A DNA stretch of 41,288 nt from Terriglobales bacterium. GTDB lineage: Bacteria > Acidobacteriota > Terriglobia > Terriglobales > Acidobacteriaceae. The stretch's first letter is position 1; the number at the start of each line of letters is the position of its first letter. The notes under the pieces were generated by a model. That model saw only the letters and a program-made list of their open reading frames with translations. It was not told the origin of the DNA and made no database searches. Positions 6,822-39,696 of this stretch are shown here, piece by piece. The DNA lies in NCBI GenBank assembly GCA_036391015.1, contig DASWAR010000161.1:1-41288 (forward strand). The letters run 5' to 3'. The position numbers and the translations under genes were made by a program.

Positions 6822-6860
6822 CCAGTACCTGCTCAGCGTGCCGTGGTAACCCCAGTACTG

Positions 6861-7156: not shown

Positions 7157-7675
7157 TCAGTTGCTGTGCGCGGCAGCGTGCGAGGCAGGGTGCACCAGGT
7201 GGGGCCGGCGCGCGCGCGCTAGTCCGATCGACCGCACTCGGTCATAGGCCTGATGCAGGTCCTGGCTGAGCAAGTGAACCACCTGCAGGCAGGCCACGCG
7301 GTGTTCGCGCAGGAAGTGCAGAAGGTCCTTGCGGCGGACGAAAGCCACCTGCGAAGTGTCCAGCATTTCCGCGGTCACTTCGTAGGGCCGGCCCGCCATG
7401 CTGGCGCTCAGGCCCAGCACCTCGCCCGGCCCGGCAACGCGCAGCATCAGGCGCTTGCGCACGTCGGAACAGACCGAGAGCTTGGCGCGCCCTTCGCACA
7501 AGACATAAATTCCCCGCGGCTGTTTGCCTTCGGCGAACAATGTCGCTCCGCGCGGCACGCTCGTGGTGGTCTTAATGGCGTCGAATGCCTGTAGCGCTTC
7601 GGCCGGCAAATCACAGAAAACCCGGTCCGGCCGCAGCTCGCAGGTAAAGCAGCTCTGGTGCTTGGCGCTTTCCAT
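7157..7675 (-). CDS. Crp/Fnr-family paralogue with cNMP-binding (effector) domain and dimerisation helix but no helix-turn-helix
   Basis: Aligns by eye with the neighbouring 253-aa regulator from SCFTCELR... to ...RVRSIGL. It then diverges and stops about 20 aa later. The ATG at 7675 (MESAKHQSCFTC) is preferred by homology. The tracked ORF starts at a GTG at 7726, inside a palindrome. Confidence 0.7.
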   Translation of the reverse strand: MESAKHQSCFTCELRPDRVFCDLPAEALQAFDAIKTTTSVPRGATLFAEGKQPRGIYVLCEGRAKLSVCSDVRKRLMLRVAGPGEVLGLSASMAGRPYEVTAEMLDTSQVAFVRRKDLLHFLREHRVACLQVVHLLSQDLHQAYDRVRSIGLARARRPHLVHPASHAAAHSN

Positions 7676-7710
7676 GACACTGGAATGATGCTTGCCGCGG
7701 GGAACCAAGA

Positions 7711-7728
7711 CAGTGACTGCTATCACTG
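7711..7728. promoter_or_regulatory. CRP/FNR-type palindrome CAGTGA-N6-TCACTG (site 5)
   Basis: cagtgaCTGCTAtcactg with perfect 6-bp arms. Its centre is about 44 nt upstream of the ATG at 7675, the same geometry as site 1. Confidence 0.6.
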
Positions 7729-7850
7729 TTTGTAGTGATGCATAACCGAAAAATCAAAGCTCGGAGCGGGCTTCGGCAGGAAATACAAGGAGCTTTCTCC
7801 GCCGCACCCGTCATGGCGCAGCGAAGTTCCGGCGAAGACTTGAGACGTCC

Positions 7851-8612
7851 CTAGACGCTGGCCAGGGCTTTCAACGCCGCCTTGTTGCGGATCAGCAACG
7901 TCGAACCCTTGGCGTGCACGATCTGCCGCTTCTTCAATTCGGCGAACAGACGCGTGACCGTCTCGCGCGAGGTCCCGATCATCTGCGCGATCTCCTCGTG
8001 GGTGAGCGCCATCTTCACGCGCGGCTCCTGCTTGTTGGCTTCCCCGTTCCTCGAGCTCCACTCCAGCAGCAGCTTGGCGAGCTTTTCCGCCGCCGAGTGT
8101 GAAAGCCCCAGCGAGCGGATCTCGTGGCAAGCGGTGTTGTACTTCTCGCTCAATTGCTCGGCCACGCGGAAGCAGGCCTCGCTGTGCTCGCGCAGGAAAC
8201 GCAGAAAATCTTCGCGCTTGACGAAGTTGACCTGGCAGGGATCGATCGTCTCCGCCGTGAGTTCGTACGGTTTGCCGGAAACGGTGGCGCTGAGCCCGAG
8301 CACTTCGCCGGGTTCGGCGATTTTCAGGATCAAGGTTTTTCCGTCGGTGGAACAGATGGAGAGCTTCACCCGCCCTTTGCAGAGGACAAAAATTCCGCGG
8401 GGCGCCTGGCCTTCCACGAACAACACTGCGCCCTTGGGATAAGCACTGGCGTACTTAATAGCTTCGAATGATTGCAGGGCGGCAGTGGGCAAATCGCAGA
8501 ATATCCGGTCGGCCCGGAGCTTACAGGTGAAGCAGCTTTCTATGATATCGAGTCCATAAGGTGATAACACGACACAACCCCCTGTGACATTCCATCTTAC
8601 CCTTCCGGTCAA
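7851..8612 (-). CDS. Crp/Fnr-family transcriptional regulator (full length, with N-terminal Cys triad)
   Basis: cNMP-binding beta-roll (FVEGQAPRGIFVLCKGRVKL...GEVLGL). C-terminal HTH reads THEEIAQMIGTSRETVTRLF; its RETVxR matches the E. coli CRP recognition helix RETVGR. N-terminal motif is C-x2-C-x8-C (CFTCKLRADRIFC). The tracked start at 8612 is TTG. A GTG at 8570 preceded by GGGGG is a plausible alternative. Confidence 0.88.
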   Translation of the reverse strand: MTGRVRWNVTGGCVVLSPYGLDIIESCFTCKLRADRIFCDLPTAALQSFEAIKYASAYPKGAVLFVEGQAPRGIFVLCKGRVKLSICSTDGKTLILKIAEPGEVLGLSATVSGKPYELTAETIDPCQVNFVKREDFLRFLREHSEACFRVAEQLSEKYNTACHEIRSLGLSHSAAEKLAKLLLEWSSRNGEANKQEPRVKMALTHEEIAQMIGTSRETVTRLFAELKKRQIVHAKGSTLLIRNKAALKALASV

Positions 8613-10728: not shown

Positions 10729-11337
10729 TCAGAGCGCCAGCTTCTGGCGAACGAACGCGACCACTTCCTCGCTCACGTAGCGCGGCGGCCGCACCCGGAA
10801 CACCGGCTTGCCCTGGATCAGCTTGAGCGACACTCCGCTCCACGCCGGCAGCGCATCGGGCGGCGCGTCGTGCAAAATTACCGCCGACGCAAAGTCCAGA
10901 AACTCGCGCGCCGTGGGCTTGAAATCCGCCGTGCCGTAGTCCAGCACGGTCAAATACAAGTCCGGCCGCAAAAACTTCATCACGCTATTCGACTCGACGA
11001 TCACGTTCTCGGCGCCCGCGATCTGTTTGCGCAACGCCGGCATCGCTTCCGCCAAATTGCCCTGGCGCGTCCGCACCCACAGCGAACGCTCCGCCCCCGA
11101 CACCAGGAACCGCGACGTGTCGCTCTCTCCCGAGCGGTCGCGCTCTTCGATGATGGCCCAGGAATCATCGGCGGTGGCGCAGTCGCATAGTTCTGAGCTT
11201 GCCGAGCAAACCCCGTGCCCAAATTGCGTGATCTTGACGGCGGTCCAGCGGCGCTCCGGCATGGCGGCAATCAGCCCCGCCACCACGCTGGTTTTTCCCA
11301 CGCTCCGCGAATGTCCGCCGATAACAACTAGGGCCAT
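10729..11337 (-). CDS. P-loop NTPase, MobB-like (function uncertain)
   Basis: Walker A motif GGHSRSVGKTS at the N-terminus. VKITQFGHG and VIVESNS segments resemble the MobB layout. This is a weak call. Confidence 0.4.
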   Translation of the reverse strand: MALVVIGGHSRSVGKTSVVAGLIAAMPERRWTAVKITQFGHGVCSASSELCDCATADDSWAIIEERDRSGESDTSRFLVSGAERSLWVRTRQGNLAEAMPALRKQIAGAENVIVESNSVMKFLRPDLYLTVLDYGTADFKPTAREFLDFASAVILHDAPPDALPAWSGVSLKLIQGKPVFRVRPPRYVSEEVVAFVRQKLAL

Positions 11338-11353: not shown

Positions 11354-11408
11354 GGTAGTCCGTAGCCGGTAGTCCGGTCCGGACTACGGACTAGCGACTA
11401 CCGACTAC
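11354..11408. repeat. Quasi-palindromic low-complexity repeat (gtagtcc/ggactac words) overlapping the lpxD stop codon
   Basis: gtagtccgg-t-ccggactac is a perfect 9-bp inverted repeat at 11369-11387. It is flanked by further gtagtcc / gactac words. The lpxD TAG (11405-11407) lies inside the last word. Confidence 0.6.
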
Positions 11409-12400
11409 GATTTTTTCGCCAGTCTCGCCAGCACGGCCAGCTCTTTCAAATACTGTCTGATGGGCCTCGCCGGCGTTCCCCAAAACAGAATGCCCTTGCC
11501 GCGGATCACTTTTCCGGTCGGCACGCCGCACTGCGCGCCCAAGATCGCGCCACTCTCGACGGTGACGTGGTCCGCGATCCCCACCTGCCCGGCGACCACC
11601 ACGCCATCTTCGATCACAGAGCTGCCCGAAATCCCTGTCTGCGCCGCGATCACTACATTTTCGCCGATGCGCACGTTATGCCCGACATGCACCATGTTGT
11701 CCAGCTTCGTGCCTCGCCCGATCACGGTCGCGTCGAGCGCGCCCCGGTCCACGGTGCTGTTGGCGCCGATCTCCACATCGTCACCAATCTCCAGCCTGCC
11801 GATCTGCGGAAATTTCGTGTACCGGCCGCTCTGCTCATCGCGCACGAATCCGAAACCGTCGCTGCCCAGCACCGCCCCGGCATGCACGATCACGCGGTCG
11901 CCCACGGTCGTGGCCGGATAAATACTGACATTCGATTTGATGTCGCAACCTGCCCCAAGGCGCACGCCCGCGCCGATAAACGCGCCGACGCCAATCGCAG
12001 TGTGGTCACCGATGGTGACTTTTTCCGAAACCACCGCATGCGCTCCGACGGCAACTCCCTTGCCCAGCCGCGCGCTCTCATGCACAACCGCACTCTCGTC
12101 GATTCCTGGACCTGGCCGTCGCACCGGACACAACAACTCCGACGCCTTGGCGAACGCCAGCCTCGGCTGCCTGGCGATGACCAGCGACTTGTCTGGCACG
12201 GGTCTCTGACCTGTGTCCGCAAACTCACCCGCAATCACCGCCGCTGCTTTCGACGCAAGCGCCGCCGCCAGATGTCTTTCGTTGTCGACGAACACGAGAC
12301 CCCGCGCCGTTGCCGACTCGATGCTCGCCACCGAGCCGACCTCAACGTCTGCGCCCACCACCCTGCCGCCGATGTGTTTTGCAATCTCGCTGAGCTTCAT
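11405..12400 (-). CDS. lpxD: UDP-3-O-(3-hydroxyacyl)glucosamine N-acyltransferase
   Basis: The N-terminus MKLSEIAKHIGG... is LpxD-like. It is followed by a long run of hexapeptide repeats (left-handed beta-helix) and PQIGRLEIGDDVEIGANSTVDRGAL. The ATG at 12400 is preferred over the tracked 12436. Confidence 0.88.
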   Translation of the reverse strand: MKLSEIAKHIGGRVVGADVEVGSVASIESATARGLVFVDNERHLAAALASKAAAVIAGEFADTGQRPVPDKSLVIARQPRLAFAKASELLCPVRRPGPGIDESAVVHESARLGKGVAVGAHAVVSEKVTIGDHTAIGVGAFIGAGVRLGAGCDIKSNVSIYPATTVGDRVIVHAGAVLGSDGFGFVRDEQSGRYTKFPQIGRLEIGDDVEIGANSTVDRGALDATVIGRGTKLDNMVHVGHNVRIGENVVIAAQTGISGSSVIEDGVVVAGQVGIADHVTVESGAILGAQCGVPTGKVIRGKGILFWGTPARPIRQYLKELAVLARLAKKS

Positions 12401-12437
12401 GGTTTGCCACTCGCAATCACAACTCGGACCTCGCAAT

Positions 12438-12573
12438 TAGAACTGGTTTCAAAAATACATTTTCGCCTCAGGAAAAATGTCCCTCAGGGGCTAAAGCCCA
12501 CTATTTTTGCGGCCTCGATCGGCACGGCTAAAGCCGTGCCCTACCCAAAGACTGATGTTTGAAACCAGTTCTA
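12438..12573. mobile_element. 136-bp MITE-like element with perfect 16-bp terminal inverted repeats
   Basis: Left end tagaactggtttcaaa (12438-12453) is the exact reverse complement of right end tttgaaaccagttcta (12558-12573). The interior carries hairpins ggcacggc-taaa-gccgtgcc and gggc-taaa-gccc. It sits between the lpxL-like gene and lpxD. The final cta is the TAG stop of the lpxL-like gene. Confidence 0.6.
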
Positions 12574-13470
12574 GTACAACGGCTGCTCTCCCTCCGGCCT
12601 TGTCTTCCATCTCCGATGCACCCACAACCACTGGTCAGGAAATTTCCGCACGTACTCCTCGATCACGCTGGTGAACAACTGGGTGGCGCTGACCACGTCG
12701 CGCTCGTCATCGCCGGATTTCGGCAGCGCCAGCCGCGGCGCAAACGTAATGAGGTATTTTCGCCGCACATCGTCCCAGATGGTGAACGCCGGCACCACCG
12801 ACGCATCGGTGCGCAACGCCACCCGCGCGATGCCGCTGGCGGCGCAGGCCGGCACGCCAAAAAAATCTACGAACACGCCCGCCGGCGGGGTCATGTTCTG
12901 GTCCATGAGCAGCCCGACCGTCTCGCCCGCGCGCATCGCCGCAATCAGCCCGCGCGCGAAGTCCTGCTTTTCGAAAGTCGAGTTGCCGTGCAACGTCCGA
13001 TAGCGTTCCACCAAGCGGTCGAGATACGGATTGTCCAGCGCGCGAACCACGATCCGCAACCTGTGTCCGTGGATCGAATGTACGAACGACCCGACCTCCC
13101 ATCCTCCCAGGTGCGCGGTCAGGAACAGCACGCCCTTGCCGCGACGTTGCGCCGCGTCGAAATTCTCGAAGCCCTCATACACCGCGACCTGCGAAACGTT
13201 GTCCCGCGTGTAGCGCGGGAACCGGCAGAATTCCGCCAGTTGCCGGCCCAGCGATACAAACACGCCGCGCACGATCCTCCTGCGCTCGGCAGCCGCCATT
13301 TCCGGATAGGCAATCTCCAGGTTGCGCAGCCCCACCTTTCGCAATCGCCGGTGCAGGCGATACACCGCGCCCGCCAGCAGAATGCCGAGCGTCCGCGCCA
13401 ACGGGCGCGGCAAGGCGCCCAGGATCTTCACGACCGGCCAGACCAGCGCATACTCGAGACGATGGCGCAT
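12571..13470 (-). CDS. Lipid A biosynthesis (Kdo)2-lipid IVA acyltransferase family protein (LpxL/HtrB-like lysophospholipid acyltransferase)
   Basis: The N-terminal TM segment, NLEIAYPE, GKGVLFLTAHLGGWE, and the overall length and layout are typical of the family. It is adjacent to lpxD. Confidence 0.78.
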   Translation of the reverse strand: MRHRLEYALVWPVVKILGALPRPLARTLGILLAGAVYRLHRRLRKVGLRNLEIAYPEMAAAERRRIVRGVFVSLGRQLAEFCRFPRYTRDNVSQVAVYEGFENFDAAQRRGKGVLFLTAHLGGWEVGSFVHSIHGHRLRIVVRALDNPYLDRLVERYRTLHGNSTFEKQDFARGLIAAMRAGETVGLLMDQNMTPPAGVFVDFFGVPACAASGIARVALRTDASVVPAFTIWDDVRRKYLITFAPRLALPKSGDDERDVVSATQLFTSVIEEYVRKFPDQWLWVHRRWKTRPEGEQPLY

Positions 13471-15168: not shown

Positions 15169-15428
15169 ACTTCCGTTCGAGACCCGGTTCGCGGTTTTAG
15201 TGTCCGCGACCCGGGGAATTAACTCCCAGGGTTCTGTGGTAGGTGAGCGCAGTATGCGTCGGGTGTCAGAAGCGCGCAAATCTCGCTGGTTCCTGACCCA
15301 AAGTAATGTGCGATTGCCGAAGCCCTGCCGCCCCAAAAAACGGCCCCGGATTACCACGGATATTCACGAATCAGATGCAGGTTGCTTGCGATTCGCGTTC
15401 ATCCGTGGAAATCCGTGGCTAAGCTTAG
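15169..15428 (-). other. Unassigned, highly structured ~260-nt transcript segment between the response-regulator stop and its terminator (3' UTR or candidate sRNA)
   Basis: No credible ORF. Minus-strand hairpins: ccacggat...atccgtgg enclosing acgcgaatc/gattcgtg; gggtcag...ctgac(a)ccc; cccgggtcgcgg-acactaaaa-ccgcgaaccggg (11 of 12 bp). Confidence 0.3.
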
Positions 15429-16082
15429 CTACTTGGTCACCAGCGAATGCGTGATGGCATGCACCGAGAGCGCGATCCGGTTCTGCACCCCGACCTTGCG
15501 CATCAGCTTGGCGACGTGCGCCTTCACGGTGCGCTCTTCGATGCCCAGCGCCGCTCCAATTTCCTTGTTCGCTCGTCCGGCGACCAGCATCTCCAGCACT
15601 TCTTTTTCGCGGTCGGTAAAAGTGACGCGTCCCGCCGGGAAAATACGCCCCGGCGAGGTCGTAACCCGCTCGATAAAAATGGAGAGCACGCGCCGCGGCG
15701 CCCACACGGATCCCTGGTGCACGATGCGGATGGCCATCGCGAACTCCTCCGGCGTCGCCGCTTCCTCCACGTATCCCTTGGCGCCGGCGGCCACCGCCTT
15801 GAGGATGGTCTCGTCGTCCGCGCCCGAACCGCACACCAGCAAGCGCAAGTCGGGACGCGACGCCTTCAGCCCCGCCATCAGGTCGAACAAGTTCTGCGAC
15901 CCGTGGCTGCCGACCATCACCATGTCCAGATCGGGCTCGGTCGCCACCTTCTCCAACGGGACCGACACGATCTCAAATTCGGGTTCGGACTCGAACAGCG
16001 CGCGAAAACCGATCAGCCGCAGCGGATCGGGCTCAATGACAGCAACGCGAATCTTGGGTTTTTTGGGCGCGGCCGCTTTCAT
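15429..16082 (-). CDS. NarL/LuxR-family response regulator with degenerate (pseudo-)receiver domain
   Basis: C-terminal LuxR HTH (REKEVLEMLVAGRANKEIGAALGIEERTVKAHVAKLMRKVGV). In the receiver-like N-terminus, the phospho-acceptor position reads MVMVG rather than hhhhD. The conserved Lys position reads GYVEE rather than GYLxK. The ATG at 16082 is preferred; the tracked ORF runs to 16112. Confidence 0.8.
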   Translation of the reverse strand: MKAAAPKKPKIRVAVIEPDPLRLIGFRALFESEPEFEIVSVPLEKVATEPDLDMVMVGSHGSQNLFDLMAGLKASRPDLRLLVCGSGADDETILKAVAAGAKGYVEEAATPEEFAMAIRIVHQGSVWAPRRVLSIFIERVTTSPGRIFPAGRVTFTDREKEVLEMLVAGRANKEIGAALGIEERTVKAHVAKLMRKVGVQNRIALSVHAITHSLVTK

Positions 16083-16261
16083 ATGTTCATCCTTATGCCT
16101 GGCGCGTAGCATACCCTAAATCGGCGAAAGGCCACTGTCCGTCTGGCCATGTCCGCTAGTCACAATCTTGGGTCTCTCGGTCGATCAGTCTATCGGTCGA
16201 TCGGTTCATGACCAAGACGGACCGACGGATCGACAAACGATAGACGCCTTTCGGAGGAACG

Positions 16262-18621: not shown

Positions 18622-19098
18622 TTAGTTGACGGCCCAGCAGGTCAAGGAATTGCTGTAACGGCGGCAGCGCCAGTTCCAGGTGTGCATGCCCGGATCGAGG
18701 TGGACGTATTCGTACATGTCGGGGCGTTGCGTCTGGCCCCAGTAGGTCACCGGCCATACCTCGGGCGAAAGTTCCGGCTTCCCCCCGGCCACGCAGCCAA
18801 GGAAGATAATGGCGCCATCGCTCTCCGGCAGCGCGATGCAGTTGCGCTGTTCGCCGACAGCCCAGTCGGCCCGGCCGAAATATACCGTCGTATCCTCGCG
18901 GTGCGGCACCCAGCCGGCGCGGCTGGCGGCGCGCGCCACCCCCAGGCTGAGCCCGACCATGACGAGAACCGCAACCACCACGAGCTTCGCCCTGGCGGGA
19001 GTAGTCAACTTCTGGGTCGCGTCGGTATCCGTGGAGCCTGGATTCGAGATCGCGCCAGTATCCACGGAGCTTGGATTAGTGATCGCGCCTGTATCCAT
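18622..19098 (-). CDS. Single-pass membrane hypothetical protein with Cys-containing extracytoplasmic domain
   Basis: MDTGAITNPSSVDTGAISNPGS is an imperfect 10-aa tandem repeat. It is followed by TM helix LVVVAVLVMVGLSLGV and a C-terminal domain with 4 Cys. Only the C-terminal 158 aa of the 300-aa tracked ORF look coding. Confidence 0.5.
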   Translation of the reverse strand: MDTGAITNPSSVDTGAISNPGSTDTDATQKLTTPARAKLVVVAVLVMVGLSLGVARAASRAGWVPHREDTTVYFGRADWAVGEQRNCIALPESDGAIIFLGCVAGGKPELSPEVWPVTYWGQTQRPDMYEYVHLDPGMHTWNWRCRRYSNSLTCWAVN

Positions 19099-19197
19099 GG
19101 CCGCAATCTTAGCGGGGTTGCGGCAAAAAAAAGAGATTACGTGGGTGCCTGAACCACGGTGCTTATCGCCCCCGGCGCGTGGTACAACAAAGTCGCC

Positions 19198-19347
19198 ATG
19201 GGCCACTTGCCCGTAGCGCGCGCGGCGCGGCTGGATCCGGCGAGCTTTGAAGCGCACGCCTACCTGGCGGAATGCTAGCGGAAACAGGGAAAGTCCGAAC
19301 AAGCATTCGGGGAATATCAAAAAGCCATTGCGTTGCGGGGGAGATAG
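19198..19347 (+). pseudogene. Relic of a TPR-repeat gene (fragment with in-frame TAG)
   Basis: The frame reads MGHLPVARAARLDPASFEAHAYLAEC*RKQGKSEQAFGEYQKAIALRGR*. This is a TPR-like consensus with TAG (19276-19278) at the position where Tyr is expected. Confidence 0.4.
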
Positions 19348-19368
19348 TCCCGAGTCCCGAGTCCCGAG
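19346..19368. repeat. Heptanucleotide tandem repeat (agtcccg x3)
   Basis: agtcccgagtcccgagtcccgag, directly adjacent to the cytochrome c3 terminator. Confidence 0.7.
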
Positions 19369-19370
19369 CA

Positions 19371-19404
19371 AGAAAAACTGCGCCGGCGGGTAAGGCCGGC
19401 GCAG
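19371..19404 (-). terminator. Rho-independent terminator of the cytochrome c3 gene
   Basis: Perfect 10-bp stem ctgcgccggc/gccggcgcag with a 7-nt loop, followed on the minus strand by UUUUUCU. Confidence 0.8.
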
Positions 19405-19445
19405 AACAGTGGTGCTGAAGAATTCAAGGCAATGCGGTAGTGCGA

Positions 19446-19856
19446 TCAGACATTGGCTTTCTGATGGCACTCGGTGCACTTGGTCGGAGCTTTCTTGCCC
19501 TTGGCGTTTTCCGCCGTGTGGCAATCGATGCAGGTGCCCTTCTTAGCCGTGGCATCGTGGAATGCCAGTTTGAAAGTGGTCTTCATCGGGGCCGCGGCCG
19601 CCTTAACGTGGCACTCGCTGCAAGCCTGCGTCTTGCCGGTGGCAGCTTTCTCCGGTTTGGACGCATGGTGGCAGGTCTCGCACTTGATGTTGCGGTCCTT
19701 GACGTGAGCCGAATGCATGAACTTCACGCCGCCCATGGGATTGCCCTTGAGGATGACCGTATCAGGCGCTGGCTTGTCTGCGGCAAAAGCGGGACCGCAC
19801 ATGACAAATAGCAGGGCGAGGCCCAACAGAACAGCAAACAGTTTGGAAATCTTCAC
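19446..19856 (-). CDS. Periplasmic tetrahaem cytochrome c3 (class III)
   Basis: Signal peptide plus four CxxCH motifs (CETCH, CSECH, CIDCH, CTECH) in about 110 mature residues. GTG start preceded by GAGGAGG. Confidence 0.88.
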   Translation of the reverse strand: MKISKLFAVLLGLALLFVMCGPAFAADKPAPDTVILKGNPMGGVKFMHSAHVKDRNIKCETCHHASKPEKAATGKTQACSECHVKAAAAPMKTTFKLAFHDATAKKGTCIDCHTAENAKGKKAPTKCTECHQKANV

Positions 19857-20102: not shown

Positions 20103-20459
20103 TTAGTAGCCGCGGCCGTAGCCACCGCCGCCGCCGCCGCGTCCGCCGCTGCCGCCACCGCGTCCACCACGACCGCCGCCGCCACCACCACCAGCACCAC
20201 CAGCGCCGCGTTCCGGCTTGGGACGGGCTTCGCTGACGTTCAAGTTGCGTCCGCCGACGCTGCTGCCGTTAATACCGGCGACGGCTTTCTCGGCTTCGGC
20301 GTCATTGGTCATCTCGACGAAGGCGAAGCCGCGGGGCTGTCCGGTGTCGCGGTCGCGAATCATGTTGACGCGCTCGACCGTACCGTAGCCCTCGAAGAGC
20401 GTGCGCAGCTCTTCCTCGCTGGTCCTGAAATCAAGGTTGCCCACGTAAATGTTCTTCAT
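20103..20459 (-). CDS. RRM-type RNA-binding protein with Gly/Arg-rich C-terminal tail
   Basis: RNP2 motif IYVGNL, RNP1 motif RGFAFVEM, then GGAGGGGGGGRGGRGGGSGGRGGGGGGYGRGY. The ATG at 20459 is preferred; the tracked ORF extends spuriously to 20870. Confidence 0.88.
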   Translation of the reverse strand: MKNIYVGNLDFRTSEEELRTLFEGYGTVERVNMIRDRDTGQPRGFAFVEMTNDAEAEKAVAGINGSSVGGRNLNVSEARPKPERGAGGAGGGGGGGRGGRGGGSGGRGGGGGGYGRGY

Positions 20460-20697
20460 ATTGTCCTCGCGGTTGAGGTCTGTTGATTGGGGGCTTGCTC
20501 GGAAGCAGCGAAGGCAGTGCCGAGTGCGGCTCGCGATCTCTAGACCGAAATAGCGGTACTTCGCCCTCTGCGGGCGGAACAAGACTACCATTTCAACGGC
20601 TTCCGCGCCGGTTCGGGCAAAACTTTTTCGCGAGCCGGCAGTGCCATTTTGGTTATTAGAACGTTCGCCATACGCGCCCTGTGCTAGCCTCGACCTG

Positions 20698-21432
20698 ATG
20701 GACGTTTCCACAACTACACGCGCCAACGGAGCGGCTGCTGTCGCTGCACCGCGGATGGTGCGCGTGCCCGAGGGCTGGTTCTGGATGGGCAGCGACGCGG
20801 GCCTGGACTGCGAGCGTCCGCGGCATCGGGTGTGGGTTGATGGATTCGAAATGGCGGCCACGCAGGTCACCCATTGTGACTACTCGCGGTATCTACGCGC
20901 AACCGGAGCGGCGCCGCCGCCGTATTTCGAACATCCGGAATTCAACCAGGCCGAACAGCCGGTGGTGGCGGTGTCATGGTTCGAGGCGGTGGCGTATTGC
21001 GAGTGGCTGAGCGCGGCGGCGGGACAGCAATATCGTTTGCCGACCGAGGCGGAGTGGGAACGGGCAGCGCGCGGAGGCGTGGACGACACGCCCTATCCGT
21101 GGGGTGATGAGCCGCCGCAGGCACGTCCGGGATATGCCAACCGGTGGAAGACGGGGCCGGAGCGGGTGGGGCAGAGCGAGCCGAATGGATTCGGCCTGCA
21201 CGAGATGTGCGAGAACGTACACGAGTGGTGCAGCGACTGGTTTGACCCGTCCTACTACTGCAGTTCGGCGGAACGTAATCCATGCGGGCCGGAAAGCGGG
21301 ACGCGGCGGGCATCGCGCGGCGGATCGTGGAGGCACCACGTCAAGAATTCCAGGTGCTACACACGGTCGAGCATTCCGCCTGAGTTTCAGTATGCGGATT
21401 ACGGGTTTCGGGTAGTGCGGAGAAGCGATTAG
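20698..21432 (+). CDS. Formylglycine-generating enzyme (SUMF1/EgtB/PvdO) family protein
   Basis: MVRVPEGWFWMGS, PVVAVSWFEAVAYCEWLS, YRLPTEAEWERAARGG, GLHEMCENVHEWCSDW, RGGSW and YGFRVVR are all family hallmarks. Confidence 0.85.
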   Translation: MDVSTTTRANGAAAVAAPRMVRVPEGWFWMGSDAGLDCERPRHRVWVDGFEMAATQVTHCDYSRYLRATGAAPPPYFEHPEFNQAEQPVVAVSWFEAVAYCEWLSAAAGQQYRLPTEAEWERAARGGVDDTPYPWGDEPPQARPGYANRWKTGPERVGQSEPNGFGLHEMCENVHEWCSDWFDPSYYCSSAERNPCGPESGTRRASRGGSWRHHVKNSRCYTRSSIPPEFQYADYGFRVVRRSD

Positions 21433-21452
21433 CAGTTAGCAAGCAGTTAGCA
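21431..21452. repeat. Tandem 11-mer (agcagttagca x2) filling the gap between two convergent stop codons
   Basis: It overlaps the TAG of the FGE-family gene (21430-21432). It ends 2 nt before the ccmD stop (21454-21456). Confidence 0.65.
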
Positions 21453-21453
21453 A

Positions 21454-21573
21454 TTAGCTGCGGTTGAGATCGTCGATGTCGTCGCGCAGGCGCTGGTAGC
21501 CGCGGGTGAGGATTACCAGGTAAACGATGTGAATCGCCCAAGCGGCGCCGTAGGCGGCGTAAACCCACTTCAT
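21454..21573 (-). CDS. ccmD: Haem exporter protein CcmD
   Basis: 39-aa single-TM peptide MKWVYAAYGAAWAIHIVYLVILTRGYQRL.... ATGA start/stop overlap with ccmC. Confidence 0.75.
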   Translation of the reverse strand: MKWVYAAYGAAWAIHIVYLVILTRGYQRLRDDIDDLNRS

Positions 21574-22268
21574 CGCGATGCCCCTTTCGCGCCGGCAATG
21601 GCCTTCATGGCGTGCGCTTCTTCCACCTGCTGGCGCAGGCGTTCGAGGCGGTACCGAAGCCAGATCACCAGAAATGCGAGCGCCAGGAATCCGCACCAGT
21701 TGATCAGCAGGGCGTGCATCATGCGGGGATCAATGCCGGAGCCTTGGCCGCCGCCGATGACCGGCTGCGGATGCTGTGTGCGGAACCAACGGATCGCCAT
21801 ATAAACGAACGCCACGTCCACGGCGCCGAAGACGGCGAGCACGGAGGCCAGCATCGGATTCTGGCCGGCGGTGGAGTAGCGCCGCAGCAGCAGATAGCTG
21901 ACGTAGATGAGCCAGAGGACGAGCGTGGAGGTGAGGCGCGCGTCCCAGGTCCACCAGATACCCCAGATCGGCTTCGCCCAAATCGGCCCGGTAACCAGCA
22001 CGACGGTGCAAAAGACGACGCCGACTTCGGCGGTGGTGAGCGCGACGGCATCGGCCTTCGAGTCACCCGAGGCGAGATACCAGATGGAAGCGACCAGGTT
22101 GGCGAAGAAGCACAGGAACGCCGTCCAGGCCGAGGGCACGTGGTAGTAGAAAATCCGCTGCGCGTCGCCCATGGTCATTTCCCTGGGAGCGACGATGATC
22201 GCCTGGTAAAGGCCGTAGGAGAGCAGCGCGAGCGTGATGAGGGCGAGGATGGAGAAGGTCGATTTCAT
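21570..22268 (-). CDS. ccmC: Haem exporter/lyase subunit CcmC
   Basis: WWD motif (WGIWWTWDARLTS), multiple TM helices, about 232 aa. ATGA overlap with ccmB. The tracked ORF extends to 22514. Confidence 0.88.
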   Translation of the reverse strand: MKSTFSILALITLALLSYGLYQAIIVAPREMTMGDAQRIFYYHVPSAWTAFLCFFANLVASIWYLASGDSKADAVALTTAEVGVVFCTVVLVTGPIWAKPIWGIWWTWDARLTSTLVLWLIYVSYLLLRRYSTAGQNPMLASVLAVFGAVDVAFVYMAIRWFRTQHPQPVIGGGQGSGIDPRMMHALLINWCGFLALAFLVIWLRYRLERLRQQVEEAHAMKAIAGAKGASR

Positions 22269-22978
22269 TCCGCGTGCAAGACCGTGTCGAAGAGAAGATA
22301 TCCGATGATGGTGAACACTATATCGTACACGGCGAGAAAGACGAGCGGGAGATAGGGAGAGTTGTCGCCGGTAAGGATGGCGGTGGTTCCCGCAACCATG
22401 GCCAGCAGCGCGGGAATCGAGATGGGGAACAGCAGCAGCGGGAGCATGACTTCGCGGCTGCGGGTGCGGATGGACATGGCGGCGAAAAACGTGCCGTTGA
22501 CCACCAGGGCCCATGTGCCCAGGATAGAGGCGATGGCGAGTTGATAGGCGGGACCAACGCTGCGCAGGTTGTAGAAGACGACGAACAGCGGCGTCATCAG
22601 GGCTTCCAGGATGATGACGAAGAGGAAATTACCGATGGCTTTGGCAAGAAAAAGCGATTCGGCGGGCGCTGGCGAGACGCGGTAGGCATCGAGCGCCTGA
22701 TTGCGCAGCTCGCGCGCCCAGGTCTGATTAAGGGCAACCACCGCGGCGAACAGCAGCGCCACCCACACCAGACCGCCGGCAATGCGGCGCGATTCTTCGG
22801 CGGTGAGGTCGAAGGAGAAGCTGAAGATCACCACCACCAGCAGAGCGAAAAACAGCATGGAGTTGATGGCGTCCTTGGAGCGCCACTCCAGGCGCATGTC
22901 TTTGGCGAGGGTGACGCGCAAAATATCCAAGAACGCGGGAGGCTGCGCGCGGATGGGCGCGACGGCAGAGGCGCTCAT
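22265..22978 (-). CDS. ccmB: Haem exporter permease CcmB
   Basis: 237-aa polytopic membrane protein in the ccmB position. LEWRSKD and FSF..DL segments are typical of the family. Confidence 0.8.
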   Translation of the reverse strand: MSASAVAPIRAQPPAFLDILRVTLAKDMRLEWRSKDAINSMLFFALLVVVIFSFSFDLTAEESRRIAGGLVWVALLFAAVVALNQTWARELRNQALDAYRVSPAPAESLFLAKAIGNFLFVIILEALMTPLFVVFYNLRSVGPAYQLAIASILGTWALVVNGTFFAAMSIRTRSREVMLPLLLFPISIPALLAMVAGTTAILTGDNSPYLPLVFLAVYDIVFTIIGYLLFDTVLHAE

Positions 22979-23502
22979 CGCGGCACCGCCGAATTTGTAT
23001 TCGCCGGCTCGCCTCGCGAACTGAAGCGCGGTATCCAGCGAGGCACGGTGCGGCAGTATTCCTCGTAGGAGGCGCCGAATTTGCGGCGGAGGTCAGGCTC
23101 CTCCAGGTACACGACGCCGAGGTGGACAACCACGATCCACGCCCCGGCGAAGACGAGGACCGACGGGGAGCGCAAATACAGCGCGAACGCCGCCAGCAGG
23201 GCGAGACCACCGATGTACATGGGATTGCGTACGAACCGGTACGGCCCGACGGCGACCACCCGGCGGGGAGCGTCGAAAGGCGCCGGAGTCCCGCTTCCGC
23301 GAACCACGAAAAAGCCGATGCAGACCAACTCGACCGCCAGCGCGGGGACAGCGATGCTCCACCCGAGGGTGGGGCACCACGCGGGTAGTGATCGCCCGGC
23401 GCGCACGTCCATCCGGCTCACGTAGAGCGCCAGCCAGCCCCACAGCAGGACGAAGGAGGAGGCAAAAAACAGCGCGCGCAACGCAGTGAAGATGGTACTC
23501 AT
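22975..23502 (-). CDS. ICMT/PEMT-family integral-membrane carboxyl methyltransferase-like protein (copy 2)
   Basis: Four to five TM helices. C-terminal signature VRNPMYIGG...YLEEPDLRRKFGASYEEYCRTVPRWIP follows the RHPxYxG...EE..L...FG..Y..Y...V pattern of isoprenylcysteine carboxyl methyltransferase-like enzymes. ATGA overlaps at both ends. Confidence 0.8.
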   Translation of the reverse strand: MSTIFTALRALFFASSFVLLWGWLALYVSRMDVRAGRSLPAWCPTLGWSIAVPALAVELVCIGFFVVRGSGTPAPFDAPRRVVAVGPYRFVRNPMYIGGLALLAAFALYLRSPSVLVFAGAWIVVVHLGVVYLEEPDLRRKFGASYEEYCRTVPRWIPRFSSRGEPANTNSAVPR

Positions 23503-24026
23503 CGCGGCACCGCCGAATTCGTTTCCGCGGGTTTCCGGCGCGAACTGAAGCGCGGTATCCAGCGAGGCACGGTGCGGCAGTAAGTTTCATACGCTGCGCC
23601 GAATTTTGTCCGCAGAGTGGGTTCCTCGTAGACGAGGACGAAAACGTGGGCCAACAGCAGCCACGGCAGACAGAAGATAAACGCCGCACCGGAGCGGAGG
23701 TAGAGCGCGAATCCGGCGAGCAGGAGCGCGCCGCCGATATACATCGGATTGCGGACGCAACGGTAGGGCCCGACGGCGACGAATTGGCGGGGCGGATCAA
23801 ACGGCGCGGGCGTGCCGCGGCCGATGACAACGAACGTGGCAATGCAGGCCACGCAGATGACCGAGCCAGCGAGCATCACGGGGATGGCCAGGATGCCCGT
23901 CCACTCCGGTAGTTGCAGGTTGTACAGGCTGTCGTAGCGCCGCAGGCCCAGCGCGACCCACGCCCAGAGCCACAGGAAAGCGACCATCACAATCAGCGCA
24001 CGGACGGCGATGAAGGCTGTCTTCAC
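23499..24026 (-). CDS. ICMT/PEMT-family integral-membrane carboxyl methyltransferase-like protein (copy 1)
   Basis: Paralogue of 22975-23502, also 175 aa, with VRNPMYIGG...VYEEPTLRTKFGAAYETYCRTVPRWIP. ATGA overlaps with ccmA and with copy 2. Confidence 0.8.
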   Translation of the reverse strand: MKTAFIAVRALIVMVAFLWLWAWVALGLRRYDSLYNLQLPEWTGILAIPVMLAGSVICVACIATFVVIGRGTPAPFDPPRQFVAVGPYRCVRNPMYIGGALLLAGFALYLRSGAAFIFCLPWLLLAHVFVLVYEEPTLRTKFGAAYETYCRTVPRWIPRFSSRRKPAETNSAVPR

Positions 24027-24730
24027 GACGCCCCCCGAGGCTGAAGTTCGCGGCGTGCGCGGTCGCGGGCAACAATCTGGCCGGCGTTCATGGTGACCGA
24101 CTCGTCGGCGACGCCGTCCAGCAGCGCCGGCTGGTGCGTGACGACGAAGACAGTCTTGCCCGCGTCACGCATTTCGCCGAGGAGGCGGACCATCTCGCGC
24201 GCGGAAGCGATGTCCACGTTGGAAAAAGGCTCGTCGAGAAGAACAATGGCCGGGTCGTTGAGAATGGCGCGGGCGAGCGAAAGGCGCTGCCGCATGCCCT
24301 GGGAATACTGCCCGACGCGGCGCGGGAGATCGGGATCGAGACCGACGGCGCGCATCACCTCGGAGCAATGCTGGCCGCCGCGGATGCCGTAGAGACGGGC
24401 GAAATAGCGGAGGTTTTCCATGCCGTCCATTTCGTCGTAGAGCAGCGGCGCGTGCGCCATGTAACCGATTTCGGCGGCGACGGAACGCAGGTCCGGCGAA
24501 CCCAGCACGGTGACCGCGCCGCGGGAGGGACGCATCAGCCCGGCAATGGCGCGCAGCAGCGTGGACTTCCCTGCTCCGTTGTCGCCGAGCACGAGATAGA
24601 GGCGGCCGGGGGCGAACTCGGCGGTCACGCCGCGCAGGGCGGCGAAGCGGCCGAACAGTTTCGTGACCTCGGTGAGGACGATGGCGGGCGCGGGTTGGGG
24701 ATCGGTGGACGTTTGTTGCGAAAGACTCAC
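24023..24730 (-). CDS. ccmA: Haem exporter ABC ATPase CcmA
   Basis: Walker A GDNGAGKST, signature YSQGMRQRLSLA, Walker B IVLLDEPF. A GTG at 24730 forms a GTGA overlap with the ccmE stop. The tracked ORF start at 24856 lies inside ccmE. Confidence 0.85.
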   Translation of the reverse strand: MSLSQQTSTDPQPAPAIVLTEVTKLFGRFAALRGVTAEFAPGRLYLVLGDNGAGKSTLLRAIAGLMRPSRGAVTVLGSPDLRSVAAEIGYMAHAPLLYDEMDGMENLRYFARLYGIRGGQHCSEVMRAVGLDPDLPRRVGQYSQGMRQRLSLARAILNDPAIVLLDEPFSNVDIASAREMVRLLGEMRDAGKTVFVVTHQPALLDGVADESVTMNAGQIVARDRARRELQPRGAS

Positions 24731-25233
24731 TGCGCAAGACCGGCGGTGGTGGCGGTTCCGGCCTGGGCTTTCTGCAGCGGCTTGGCCGGCGCGCTGGTAG
24801 GCTGCGACCCGGGCGTGCCGGGTTGATCGGGCGCGGGCGCGTACTTGGAAGCGCACTTGGCCTGGAGCTGGTTGGCGTGGAAGACGCCGTCGCGGCCAAA
24901 GCGGCCCTCGGCCATGGCCTGCGAGTCGTCCCTAAAAGTATCCGGCGGGGCCTCGGTCCCGGTGTAAACCACGGGAAGGGTGAGTTCGTTTTCCTTGAGC
25001 GCGAATTCGACGCGCGAGCCCTGGCGCCTGATGGAGCCGGGCACGACGTTGCCGGCGACGCGCAGCCGCTTGGCATAGCGGCTGTCGTTCATGTCGCGCA
25101 GTTCCTTGATGGTGACGTAGTAGCTCTTGCTCTGCTGCACGCCGGTAAAGGCCAGGTAACCCAGGGAGACGATGACAACGGCGATGGCAACGCCGAAACG
25201 GATATACGTCAACCGACTTTTCATCTCAAGCAT
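24727..25233 (-). CDS. ccmE: Haem chaperone CcmE, CxxxY variant
   Basis: N-terminal TM anchor and an OB-fold region (RLRVAGNVVPGSI...VVYTGTEAPPDTFRDDSQAMAEGRF). The haem-binding segment reads LQAKCASKY where canonical CcmE has LAKHDENY. Start is 25233 or 25224. Confidence 0.85.
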   Translation of the reverse strand: MLEMKSRLTYIRFGVAIAVVIVSLGYLAFTGVQQSKSYYVTIKELRDMNDSRYAKRLRVAGNVVPGSIRRQGSRVEFALKENELTLPVVYTGTEAPPDTFRDDSQAMAEGRFGRDGVFHANQLQAKCASKYAPAPDQPGTPGSQPTSAPAKPLQKAQAGTATTAGLAQ

Positions 25234-25310
25234 AGGCCCCCACTGTGCCAACTCTACCCGTACCCGAATTCCCGGTCAACATTACAAGATGCCATGACCG
25301 GGGTGGCGGC

Positions 25311-29849: not shown

Positions 29850-30755
29850 CTACGCCGGCGAAGGCGCCTTCACCTGGGTCGCGAGGGCCGCCGTTTCCGG
29901 CCGTGCAAACCACTGCCGGATCGCCGGCAGCGCGGCGCGGGCCGCCTGTTCTCCGGCGCGAATCAGTTCCGGCGCGCGGTCGAAGCCGTCGTAGCTGAAG
30001 CCGCGCACGTCGGGCTGGAGAATGGCGTCGGCAGCGGCTTCCCACAAACCGCACATCTTCGATTGCGCGATGGAGAAGCACTGCCCGATGACGTCGAAGA
30101 TGTGGCGCGGACCGTCCGGGCTTACCCAGTGCGCGCTCAGGTAAACGGCGATCACGCGCTGTGCGCCCATTTCGCGCAAAGGGACGGTGGGGACGGCGTG
30201 GGCGAGCATCCCATCCACCAGCAGGCGCCCGTTAATGTTGACCGGCAGGAACATGCCCGGATATGCGCAACTGGCGCGAACCGCGTCCACCAGCGGGCCG
30301 GAGCGGAAGACCACGGGTTCGCCGCTGGTGAAGTCGGTGGCCGCCACCGCCAGCGGGATTTTCAGGTCCTCAAAGGTGCGGCACCTGAGCATCTTGTTGA
30401 GGAACCGTGCCATGCGGTCGTTGCTCGCAAAGCCGTAGCGCGAAAGCGTCCAGCGCGCGAAATCCTTGAAGCGCACCAGGGAGGCAATCTCCTCCAGTTC
30501 CCGGGCGGAGATGCCGCTGCAATAGGCCGCGCCGATCACCGAGCCGACGCTGGTACCGGCGATGAAATTGACGGGAATTCCTTCTTCTTCGAGGACCTTG
30601 AGGATGCCGATATGCGCCAGGCCGCGGGCGAAGCCGCCCCCGAGCGCAAGTCCGACGGTCGGTGTTTCCGGCGCTGCCGGGGCGAGCGGCACATCTGAAA
30701 TGCGTTGCAGCCCACGAGCAAACGCGCGAACCGAACGCGCTATTTTGTTTAGCAT
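29850..30755 (-). CDS. Patatin-like phospholipase
   Basis: Oxyanion motif GLALGGGFARG, nucleophile elbow GTSVGS, and a downstream DG(M) Asp motif. Confidence 0.88.
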   Translation of the reverse strand: MLNKIARSVRAFARGLQRISDVPLAPAAPETPTVGLALGGGFARGLAHIGILKVLEEEGIPVNFIAGTSVGSVIGAAYCSGISARELEEIASLVRFKDFARWTLSRYGFASNDRMARFLNKMLRCRTFEDLKIPLAVAATDFTSGEPVVFRSGPLVDAVRASCAYPGMFLPVNINGRLLVDGMLAHAVPTVPLREMGAQRVIAVYLSAHWVSPDGPRHIFDVIGQCFSIAQSKMCGLWEAAADAILQPDVRGFSYDGFDRAPELIRAGEQAARAALPAIRQWFARPETAALATQVKAPSPA

Positions 30756-30907
30756 ACCGTGCCTGATTCCACATCCGGCCCCACGCGGAGATTACATTCG
30801 GTATGATGCCCGGTTCTGCACTGATAATGCAGCATCGGCCCTGGCCACGCTAGGTTACGGTGGTCACGACGAACGCATTTCCAAGTAACTAAAGGCGATC
30901 TTTCCGC

Positions 30908-31387
30908 ATGGAGCGCGAATATTCGGCTGGAGGCGTGGTCCTCCGCCGCAGGCAGCAGCGGTGGTGGGTGGCGGTCATCGAGCCGCAGGGCAGGCGGAAG
31001 CCGGGCACCCCGGCCGGCGCTCCCGCCACCGTGCTCGCGCTTCCCAAGGGCAACGTGGACAAAGGCGAAAAGCCGGAGGAAACGGCGGTGCGCGAAGTGC
31101 GCGAAGAAACCGGCGTCGAAGCCGCCCTGGTTGCCAAGCTCAGCGACATCAAGTACATCTACGTGCGCTCCTGGGGCGACCGCCAGCGCGTATTCAAAGT
31201 CGTAAGCTTTTTTCTGCTGCGCTATCGCAGCGGGCGCATCGGGCAGATTACGCCGGCCATGCGCCGCGAAGTGCGGCAAGCCATGTGGCTGCCGCTGGAC
31301 GAGGCCGCGCAAAAACTCAGCTACCGCGGCGAGCGCGACGTGGTGAAGCTGGCGCAGGAATACGTCAAGGCGCATCCGGAACTTTAG
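30908..31387 (+). CDS. NUDIX hydrolase
   Basis: Nudix box GNVDKGEKPEETAVREVREETGV. Confidence 0.88.
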   Translation: MEREYSAGGVVLRRRQQRWWVAVIEPQGRRKPGTPAGAPATVLALPKGNVDKGEKPEETAVREVREETGVEAALVAKLSDIKYIYVRSWGDRQRVFKVVSFFLLRYRSGRIGQITPAMRREVRQAMWLPLDEAAQKLSYRGERDVVKLAQEYVKAHPEL

Positions 31388-31399
31388 AGCGAGGCAACT

Positions 31400-32095
<696 letters not shown>

Positions 32096-38698: not shown

Positions 38699-38759
38699 CA
38701 CGGAGGCACGGAGGCTTGAATTTCTTCAATTCAATTCTCCGTGGCTCCGTGCCTCTGTG
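38699..38759. repeat. Gene-less palindromic element built from the same cacggagg words as the GxxExxY cassette ends
   Basis: cacggaggcacggag (38699-38713) pairs with ctccgtgcctctgtg (38745-38759): 15 bp with one G-T pair. It lies between the convergent fadE and NmrA-like stops. Confidence 0.6.
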
Positions 38760-38767
38760 GTAAACGT

Positions 38768-39685
38768 TCAACTTGCTGCCGCGCTCCTGAGCAGCGGCTC
38801 AAACATCGCCCGGTTCGAGTTCAGCCAGGTTTCGAAATCCTGCATCGCCGGATACAGCTTGCGGCACTGCTCCAGGTCCGCCTTGCGATTCGGAATATGC
38901 AGGCGGTTGAACTCAAACATGTCCGCCAGTTCCTCGGCGCCGGGGAAGGCAAACTTGGCATAAACATCGCGCGGGATGTATTGGTATGCGGCTTTGCGGC
39001 CGAGCACGCGCGTCATGACTTCGGCGTAATGCGAGCACGGCGCGTCCTCGCCCACCACGCCCACAACCTTGCCGGCTACTTCATCGAAGCGTTCCAGCAG
39101 TGGAACCACCACCCCACCGAGGTCTTCCACGCTCAGCGCCGCCAACGGCGTATCGCCCTGCGGAAAGCCAAATGCCAGTGTTCCATCCGGCTGCCGCTGC
39201 AGCATCTGAAAGTTGATGAAGTTCTCATAGTAGAACGCGACGTTGACGTACACGGCGTTGAGCCCGCGCTGGCGCGCGTACTGCTCGATCTCCGCCTTGA
39301 TGTCGAGGTGCGGAACCGCAATTTTGCCACCGGTGATGTTCTTCGCGCTCGGCAAAGTGCTGAAGACGAATCGCGGGACCTTCGCTTCCGCGACCGCGTC
39401 CACCAGGTTGGCGCCGTGTTGGCGCTCGCCCTCGAAGTGCTCCCAGAAATTCGTGACTCCGAACACGACGTCGCACCCGCGCATGGCAGCCTTCAGACTC
39501 GCGCGGTCACCCAGGTCGCCCGCGACCAGTTCGCCGCCCGCCTGCCGGAGCGCGCGCGCCTTGCCGCTCGTTGTGTTTCGGCTCAGGCAGCGCACATTGT
39601 ACTTGCCGCTGCGCAGCAGATGGCGCGCCACCGATCCTCCCTGCAATCCGGTCGCGCCGGTAACCAGCACAGTTTTTCTACTCAT
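38768..39685 (-). CDS. NmrA-family NAD(P)-binding protein
   Basis: MSRKTVLVTGATGLQGGSVARHLL Rossmann motif and an NmrA-like layout. The ATG at 39685 is preferred; the tracked ORF runs to 39829. Confidence 0.82.
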   Translation of the reverse strand: MSRKTVLVTGATGLQGGSVARHLLRSGKYNVRCLSRNTTSGKARALRQAGGELVAGDLGDRASLKAAMRGCDVVFGVTNFWEHFEGERQHGANLVDAVAEAKVPRFVFSTLPSAKNITGGKIAVPHLDIKAEIEQYARQRGLNAVYVNVAFYYENFINFQMLQRQPDGTLAFGFPQGDTPLAALSVEDLGGVVVPLLERFDEVAGKVVGVVGEDAPCSHYAEVMTRVLGRKAAYQYIPRDVYAKFAFPGAEELADMFEFNRLHIPNRKADLEQCRKLYPAMQDFETWLNSNRAMFEPLLRSAAAS

Positions 39686-39696
39686 CGTCTCACCCC

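Follow-up and report, generated by a model that had tools for sequence, protein, structure and literature searches.

The window analysed here, a stretch of 41,288 nucleotides from a Terriglobales bacterium (assembly GCA_036391015.1, contig DASWAR010000161.1, positions 1 to 41,288 of the forward strand), carries a System I cytochrome c maturation (ccm) operon in which two genes encoding membrane methyltransferases of the PEMT/ICMT family, T1 (X1) and T2 (X2), lie between ccmA and ccmB. The operon occupies positions 21454-25251 of the minus strand and contains seven genes in the order ccmE-ccmA-X1-X2-ccmB-ccmC-ccmD, with ccmE placed first, before ccmA. All six junctions (6/6) are 4-nt stop/start overlaps, in the order GTGA, GTGA, ATGA, ATGA, ATGA and ATGA: the ccmE stop overlaps the GTG start of ccmA (24730), T1 starts with a GTG inside the GTGA overlap with the ccmA stop, T2 shows an ATGA overlap at each end, and the junction sequence places the true ccmC start at the ATG at 22268, which overlaps the ccmB stop as ATGA. 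Translational coupling of the two genes with the Ccm genes, proposed in an earlier sequence-only reading of this DNA, is borne out by these overlaps; the same reading had placed ATGA at every junction, which holds for two of the three insert junctions, the junction between ccmA and the first inserted gene being GTGA. T1 and T2 are almost certainly translated from the ccm operon message. A scan for internal terminators or promoters dividing the operon gave counts at chance level, terminator-like hairpins included, and the single sigma-70-like match in the region, against 0.8 expected, is not significant alone. For ccmE, the open reading frame (ORF) finder used a TTG at 25251; homologues are called at 168 aa, and the true start is probably an ATG six codons downstream of this TTG. 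The ORF in the ccmD position gave no match in the profile search; a gene of 39-41 aa is likewise called in this position in six related loci (L001, L166, L171, L173, L174 and L176).

Features of the ccm operon and its insert in the window
Feature	Position	Strand	Evidence or remark
sigma-70-like promoter match, just upstream of ccmE	25251..25279	-	consensus match; the only one in the region
ccmE, Cys-type variant (CASKY replacing HxxxY)	24727..25251	-	PF03100, E 8.6e-26
ccmA, ABC ATPase of the haem-handling CcmAB(CD) complex	24023..24730	-	PF00005, E 1.2e-27; TIGR01189 ccmA, 112 bits
T1 (X1), PEMT/ICMT-family membrane methyltransferase, 175 aa	23499..24026	-	PF04191, 54.2 bits
44-nt block, T1 3' tail	23539..23582	-	identical to the T2 block; putative crossover site
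junction motif J, copy 1, T1 end/T2 start	23498..23514	-	SD-like GGCGGTG, then start overlapping stop
T2 (X2), PEMT/ICMT-family membrane methyltransferase, 175 aa	22975..23502	-	PF04191, 50.1 bits
44-nt block, T2 3' tail	23015..23058	-	same block as in T1
junction motif J, copy 2, T2 end/ccmB start	22974..22990	-	
ccmB, permease	22265..22978	-	PF03379, E 3e-36
ccmC	21570..22268	-	TIGR01191 and PF01578
ccmD-position ORF, 39 aa, single transmembrane segment	21454..21573	-	ATGA overlap with the ccmC stop

The T1 and T2 proteins can be aligned over their full length without gaps, with 57% identity, and both score above the PF04191 gathering cut-off of 25 bits. This agrees with the sequence-only reading, which had described two 175-aa ICMT-family ORFs between ccmA and ccmB, the latter identified here by PF03379. 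Hydropathy analysis shows hydrophobic segments at residues ~1-30, 39-76 and 97-135, the last one forming a hairpin, and an AlphaFold2 (AF2) model of moderate quality (pLDDT 72, pTM 0.63) predicts helices at residues 2-35, 43-68, 94-109, 113-142 and 144-152. According to both, each protein would have about four transmembrane (TM) helices and a short C-terminal helix, which narrows the earlier count of 4-5 TM helices. The motif VRNPMYIGG ... EEP.LR.KFG..Y..YC..VPRWIP is found in T1 and T2, and its earlier description as an intact C-terminal cofactor-type signature stands: R92, N93, P94, M95, Y96, E134, E135, P136, L138, F142, G143, Y146 and Y149 are invariant across 32 relatives, and the motif aligns with the cofactor region of Ma-ICMT (PDB: 4a2n), insect ICMT (PDB: 5v7p) and AtTam46 (PDB: 8xku). 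The top Foldseek matches of the model were 5v7p, 5vg9, 7c83 and 4a2n (ICMT, steroid reductase fold), all of them weak (E 0.055-0.57, TM-score 0.36-0.46). Equivalog profiles of characterised enzymes scored far below their cut-offs: protein-S-isoprenylcysteine O-methyltransferase (NCBIfam NF040696) gave 31.1 and 30.2 bits against 160, the lipid A Kdo2 1-phosphate O-methyltransferase LmtA (TIGR04571) gave 41.9 and 44.4 bits against 325, and the methanethiol S-methyltransferase MddA (NF045656) gave 29.3 bits for T2 against 270 and no match for T1. From these comparisons T1 and T2 are assigned to the ICMT/PEMT superfamily, outside the specific ICMT, LmtA and MddA equivalog families, and we conclude that they encode putatively functional integral-membrane methyltransferases dependent on S-adenosylmethionine (SAM). 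That they are chance ORFs is dismissed because they have close orthologues and a ratio of nonsynonymous to synonymous divergence (dN/dS, omega) of 0.12-0.30. Among the top matches of both PEMT searches there were no fusion proteins, only PF04191 or related reductase-fold domains in proteins of 137-219 aa, and none of the CcmB matches was fused to a PEMT domain.

A PEMT gene between ccmA and ccmB was found in 12 distinct loci besides the window, 13 altogether, counting once the records from the same contig or near-identical ones and including targeted look-ups. All the distinct loci of this clade (13/13) hold one or two copies of the insert, and the stop/start overlaps were read directly at most junctions. 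The material is entirely metagenomic or consists of metagenome-assembled genomes (MAGs), and all trees were generated by the neighbour-joining (NJ) method. The wider synteny of the insert loci comprises transketolase, thiC, ccmE-A-X-B-C-D, FGE-sulfatase, an RRM protein and cytochrome c3, and the ccmA of the window is 84-96% identical to the ccmA of related loci. Two genes near the ccm operon of the window, both on the minus strand, are conserved neighbours in several related loci: one encodes a class III (c3-type) small cytochrome (19446-19856) and the other an RNA-binding protein of the RRM-domain type, whose C-terminal tail is long and rich in Gly/Arg (20103-20870). In some relatives the interval between the ccmD and FGE-sulfatase genes holds a DUF3592 gene, tatA or both (L001 8086-8817, L170 6608-6808), and neither is found downstream of ccmD in the window (21432-21454) or in L166; the region downstream of the operon is thus also variable.

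Sister loci were sampled as CcmB homologues with 82-88% identity on long contigs of Terriglobales MAGs. Five loci from four lineages (L170, L171, L172/L173 and L174) have no insert and show the same thiC-ccmE-ccmA-ccmB-ccmC synteny; in them ccmA overlaps ccmB directly and the order ccmE-A-B-C-D is unbroken. On a tree of CcmB plus CcmC, the insert-bearing loci form a clade in 152/200 bootstraps, and the closest outgroups are L170 and L174, both without the insert. An actual, inherited insertion is thus present, but it is recent, shallow and limited to one narrow group of soil Acidobacteria. It is not unique to one genome, which the sequence-only reading had considered, and it is not general either, since sister Terriglobales are without it. 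Of two features that a Ccm component would show, a stable coupled position within the insert-bearing lineage was observed (13/13 loci), and co-occurrence with ccm across lineages was not, the insert being confined to one shallow Terriglobales clade. The earlier idea that the insert goes with the CxxxY type of CcmE fails: CASKY, with Cys for the haem-binding His, is present in 8/8 Terriglobales CcmE examined (window, L001, L166, L169, L170, L171, L173, L174 and L176), in identical form in the insert-less sisters, and a role specific to Cys-CcmE is disfavoured because these sisters share the motif.

The subfamily to which the two proteins belong is very large, with more than 7,700 clusters at E ≤ 1e-5 among 8,000 candidates scored. 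At least 592 members were confirmed among 599 pattern matches in GTDB species representatives, and the taxa include Acidobacteriota, Gemmatimonadota, Bacteroidota, Verrucomicrobiota and others. Its members are stand-alone proteins of roughly 160-220 aa, common in soil Acidobacteriota, Gemmatimonadota and Bacteroidota, and an assigned function for this large ICMT/PEMT-like bacterial subfamily was not found. The best 80 genome loci (GTDB species representatives) and the best 80 metagenome loci were screened with the window Ccm proteins as probes. The PEMT gene is embedded in ccm in 1/80 genome and 3/80 metagenome loci, which are the closest to the query (76-86% identity); the remaining screened loci, with 62% identity or less, are free-standing and have no Ccm neighbours. 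Among 159 free-standing loci no conserved neighbour was found, the largest neighbour cluster comprising six loci with a cdsA-like gene, and no ABC ATPase gene was adjacent to the PEMT gene. In these 6/159 loci (L109 and L091 among them) the PEMT gene lies upstream of the cdsA-like gene, directly so in five, and a dxr-like gene is found two genes downstream in five loci; such neighbours hint weakly that some members of the subfamily belong to lipid or isoprenoid metabolism.

Within the ccm slot the PEMT genes fall into two divergent types. T1 alone is present in L001, L086, L087, L088, L176 and L177, with orthologues 76-90% identical, and T2 alone in L166, L167/L168, L169 and L175, with orthologues 69-97% identical; the tandem of both types is found only in the window. 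T1 has relatives in about 40 clusters with at least 69% identity and T2 in about 10 clusters with at least 64%, and NJ bootstrap support is 94 for the T1 clade and 100 for the T2 clade. Across loci, the two types are mutually 52-57% identical. They are intermixed on the CcmB plus CcmC tree and occur in backgrounds where CcmB is 97-99% identical to that of the window and the Ccm proteins are 96-98% identical. Furthermore, T1 and T2 are sister groups in 0/100 NJ bootstraps, with free-standing homologues interleaved between them; either two captures or a single capture plus conversion from a paralogue would fit this, and a long-branch artefact is possible. A recent tandem duplication was rejected, given the 57% protein identity, a synonymous divergence (dS) of about 0.95, separate orthologue clades and relatives with a single type. 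The two genes, earlier taken for paralogues, are better described as two old allelic types joined by recombination, which only the window has together. A third ccm-embedded type may be represented by P0042 (JGI contig, 3318 bp). This protein lies closest to the T1 clade in the NJ tree, is 61% identical to T1, and has a C-terminus (...M-AVGR) that resembles the CcmA-derived AVPR* tail described below; together with P0040, P0043 and P0044 it falls in a range of 60-70% identity.

Inserts and Ccm genes are alike under purifying selection, with omega values of 0.12-0.30 for the inserts (T1 0.12-0.30; T2 0.14-0.16) and 0.05-0.25 for the Ccm genes. Compared with individual Ccm genes, the inserts have a nonsynonymous divergence (dN) higher by a factor of ~1.4-17, usually 2-9. 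Insert dS also exceeds that of the flanks, by up to 11-fold: 1.52 against 0.11-0.17 in the comparison with L166, 0.55 against 0.10-0.19 with L087, and 0.29 against 0.12-0.18 with L086. The history of the cassette therefore differs from that of its flanks; either recombination moves old alleles, or the flanks are homogenised around a divergent insert.

In the insert-less sisters, the 3' end of ccmA shows a Shine-Dalgarno (SD)-like GG(A/C)GGTG, which precedes the ATGA overlap of ccmA and ccmB by about 8 nt; the ccmA/ccmB junction of these sisters is a diverged form of the junction motif J. T2-only loci (L175, L167 and L169) carry the junction motif J, GGCGGTGCCGCGATGAG, at both ends of the insert, so that a direct repeat of the coupling signal frames it. 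In these loci ccmA and the PEMT gene both end in ...AVPR*, so that the C-terminus of the PEMT protein copies that of CcmA. T1 loci show motif J downstream, and the deepest of them, L088, also has a recognisable variant upstream.

Both types have the final ~85 nt of the PEMT gene in common, and this stretch includes a 44-nt block which is identical in the window T1, the window T2, L175 and L086. Beyond this block the variable tails are exchanged: that of the window T1 is exactly the tail of the T2-only L175, and that of the window T2 matches, apart from one mismatch, the tail found in the T1-only L176. The body of the window T2 is 98% identical in DNA to that of L175. On these sequence grounds, the view that the window tandem is a recombinant of two allelic types is well supported. 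The reciprocal tail swap would be expected if a resident T1 allele and a T2 cassette, either circularised or misaligned, had crossed over once within the 44-nt block. Further exchange is suggested by P0041 (ENA contig, 1397 bp), with a T2-like N-terminal half and a C-terminal part identical to the T1 protein P0005 from about residue 109; it would be either a T2/T1 recombinant of natural origin or a chimera created in the assembly of a short contig.

On balance, we lean towards a captured stand-alone methyltransferase which is co-expressed with the Ccm proteins without a core role in their pathway. In one shallow Terriglobales clade, a member of the subfamily would have entered precisely where the ccmA stop overlaps the ccmB start, with copies of the coupling signal (SD-like GGCGGTG plus ATGA) bracketing it, and would therefore be translated within the ccmEABCD message with ccmB still coupled. 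The slot is polymorphic; recombination would move its old and divergent types, T1 and T2, among strains, and the T1-T2 tandem of the window would derive from one unequal or Campbell-type crossover in the shared block. The link with haem export would then be one of co-expression, a gene hitch-hiking on a reliably expressed membrane-protein operon, and would involve no integral step of cytochrome c maturation. We favour this explanation because close sisters are without the gene, because alleles only 52-57% identical are swapped in near-identical Ccm backgrounds, because the insert protein evolves faster than its neighbours, and because the family shows no affinity for Ccm elsewhere.

Several points weigh against co-expression alone. 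The sister sample covers only four lineages (five loci, two of them near-identical), and most insert-bearing loci were found with the insert as the query, which introduces an ascertainment bias. If T1 and T2 represent two independent captures in one slot, selection for the position would be implied. In addition, the slot is filled in all 13 clade loci with overlaps kept and under purifying selection, and a real accessory function predicts the same.

As for the activity, analogy with characterised relatives suggests that the substrate is probably lipophilic and located in the membrane (a lipid head group, a carboxylate, a phosphate or a thiol), with methylation taking place at the cytoplasmic face. 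The positive-inside rule and the analogy with Ma-ICMT, in whose structure the corresponding regions are cytoplasmic, would put two basic regions, the loop 69-94 and the C-terminal domain, on the cytoplasmic side. With this orientation the catalytic side could reach SAM, inner-leaflet lipids and new haem, and not the periplasmic haem site of CcmE; modification of that site, raised by the sequence-only reading, is thus topologically unlikely.

The alternative with most in its favour, which we nevertheless consider rather unlikely, is an accessory factor of CcmAB(CD) that would act at the cytoplasmic face on a haem propionate, a Ccm subunit or annular lipids, with a dosage that tracks CcmA/CcmB. 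Retention of the gene in all 13 distinct clade loci with exact 4-nt overlaps, purifying selection on the inserts and the presence of two non-sister types in one slot would all fit it. The chemistry is known for tetrapyrroles in another enzyme family, as Mg-protoporphyrin IX methyltransferase carries out carboxyl methylation of a tetrapyrrole propionate. A precedent for the association is AtTam46, an ICMT-like subunit of a membrane ATPase machine, Ycf2-FtsHi (PMC13533914). However, sisters whose Ccm proteins are nearly identical and whose CcmE has the same motif manage without the insert, the dN of the insert is about 1.4-17 times that of the Ccm genes, and alleles with 52-57% identity are interchangeable among Ccm backgrounds 96-98% identical, which argues against tight co-adaptation with a partner. 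Furthermore, family members elsewhere are never linked to Ccm or ABC genes in the 159 free-standing loci, and no support for such a factor was found in the literature. The more specific proposal, in which the PEMT protein is a lineage-specific CcmAB(CD) partner methylating haem propionate or annular lipids and the two alleles tune haem handling by soil niche, is doubtful to a greater degree.

Selection on the cassette itself is a further, quite improbable candidate, which is a special case of the co-expression reading and compatible with it. A niche-adaptive polymorphic cassette would modify an environmental or envelope lipophilic compound (detoxification or lipid remodelling), balancing or diversifying selection would keep the types, and ccm would only supply expression. 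Old alleles in young backgrounds, with dS up to 11 times that of the flanks, strains with T1 only, T2 only or both, and the mosaic tails together with the T2/T1 chimera P0041 are the pattern that it predicts. The substrates of characterised relatives are likewise lipids or small thiols (weak matches to the LmtA and MddA models; OlsG, related to phospholipid N-methyltransferases, PMC12971839). Nevertheless, a recombination barrier around a divergent insert combined with homogenisation of the flanks yields the same pattern without selection, and a PADLOC search for anti-phage defence gave no match.

It is highly improbable that the insert serves as an expression spacer, shifting the ratio of CcmE,A to CcmB,C,D through added coupling junctions with the protein activity being secondary: copy number does vary from one to two, and excess CcmB is reportedly harmful when it is not in complex with CcmACD (PMC11868835), but an invariant catalytic motif and an omega far lower than 1 show that selection acts on the protein itself, which a spacer would not require. 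Equally, an artefact or decay, in which the assembly would have fused two co-occurring strains into the tandem or the ORFs would be non-functional remnants, can hardly account for the data: the tandem is seen only in the window and a polymorphic slot with shared repeats (the 44-nt block and the 17-nt motif) is prone to assembler mis-joins, but the join of the T1 tail to the T2 start spans a 17-nt shared motif, below the usual assembly k-mers, so that reads would have to contain the junction, both ORFs are intact with conserved motifs and omega of 0.12-0.30, and the single-copy arrangement was assembled independently in 12 loci.

Elsewhere in the window, a minus-strand cluster (76-6869) encodes multihaem c-type cytochromes of 535, 674 and 691 aa with c7, c3, paired-CXXCH and NapC/NirT-type domains. 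It also includes cytochrome b561-type membrane parts, the 674-aa protein being a fusion of multihaem and b561 parts, which suggests a transmembrane electron conduit whose proteins would be heavy Ccm clients. Two adjacent cNMP-binding proteins (7157-8612, minus strand), one of them a full Crp/FNR-type regulator, are encoded between this cluster and the lipid A acyltransferase/lpxD-like genes (11405-13470). Five sizeable ORFs with high GC at third codon positions had no Pfam match at E ≤ 1e-5: 10729-11337, 18622-19524 and 30749-31630 on the minus strand, and 15382-16119 and 38741-39970 on the plus strand.

If the hitch-hiking reading is true, the locus is a clean natural example of a foreign gene entering a translationally coupled operon, where duplication of the coupling signal means that the downstream essential genes are not uncoupled, and the slot shows how a recombining polymorphic cassette arises inside a highly conserved operon. 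A partner of CcmAB, if that were the truth, would bring an enzymatic reaction into a pathway in which the chemistry of haem trafficking is still under debate, and the insert-less sisters, with CcmB 82-88% identical, would offer a natural presence/absence contrast; methylation of haem or lipids at CcmAB would give the System I haem-delivery module its first enzymatic accessory. Either way, the locus gives a handle on a very large bacterial ICMT/PEMT-like subfamily.

Compared with known systems, T1 and T2 resemble ICMT/Ste14 (4a2n, 5v7p) in belonging to a PF04191-related superfamily, in having several TM helices, in their best, though weak, fold matches and in the aligned R-x-P-M-Y and EE..L...FG..Y..Y motifs. 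They differ from ICMT in scoring ~30 bits against an equivalog cut-off of 160, in being shorter (about four TM helices), in having Asn where the RHPxY of ICMT has His, and in a conserved GTPAPFDPP loop specific to their subfamily; we know of no prenylated-protein pathway in these bacteria. PEMT/Opi3, Rhodobacter-type PmtA, OlsG, LmtA and MddA share the Pfam family of T1 and T2, PF04191, in which we presume OlsG and PmtA to be placed. Acting at the membrane, these enzymes transfer a methyl group to lipid head groups, to the phosphate of lipid A or to methanethiol. A relationship of OlsG to the phospholipid N-methyltransferases has been described (PMC12971839). By analogy, methylation of lipids or small molecules would be the most plausible substrate class for T1 and T2. 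None of these PEMT-superfamily methyltransferases was found to be encoded in a ccm operon. The best PDB sequence match to the C-terminal domain of T1 and T2 is AtTam46 (At5g59500; PDB 8xku chain G; 3e-9), an ICMT-like chloroplast-envelope subunit of the Ycf2-FtsHi import motor (PMC13533914). Unlike T1 and T2, it is a eukaryotic 7-TM protein of 396 aa, and the likeness is an analogy only.

The window operon resembles the canonical System I ccmABCD(E) in its coupled ccmE, ccmA, ccmB and ccmC genes and its ccmD-sized ORF, and differs from it in the one or two genes added at the ccmA/ccmB overlap and in a leading ccmE of the Cys (CxxxY) variant. The papers found on the structure and function of CcmABCD mention no PEMT-like component in title or abstract. 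The sequence-only reading knew of no described Ccm component of the ICMT/PEMT family, and the literature on ccm with ICMT, PEMT or methyltransferase and on Acidobacteria ccm agrees, with no published description of a PEMT/ICMT gene in a ccm operon found. A fundamental Ccm function is unlikely because of the narrow distribution and the insert-less sisters. The association itself is undescribed; what is new at the locus is a recombining insert, restricted to one lineage and drawn from a known superfamily, in an otherwise ordinary System I module.

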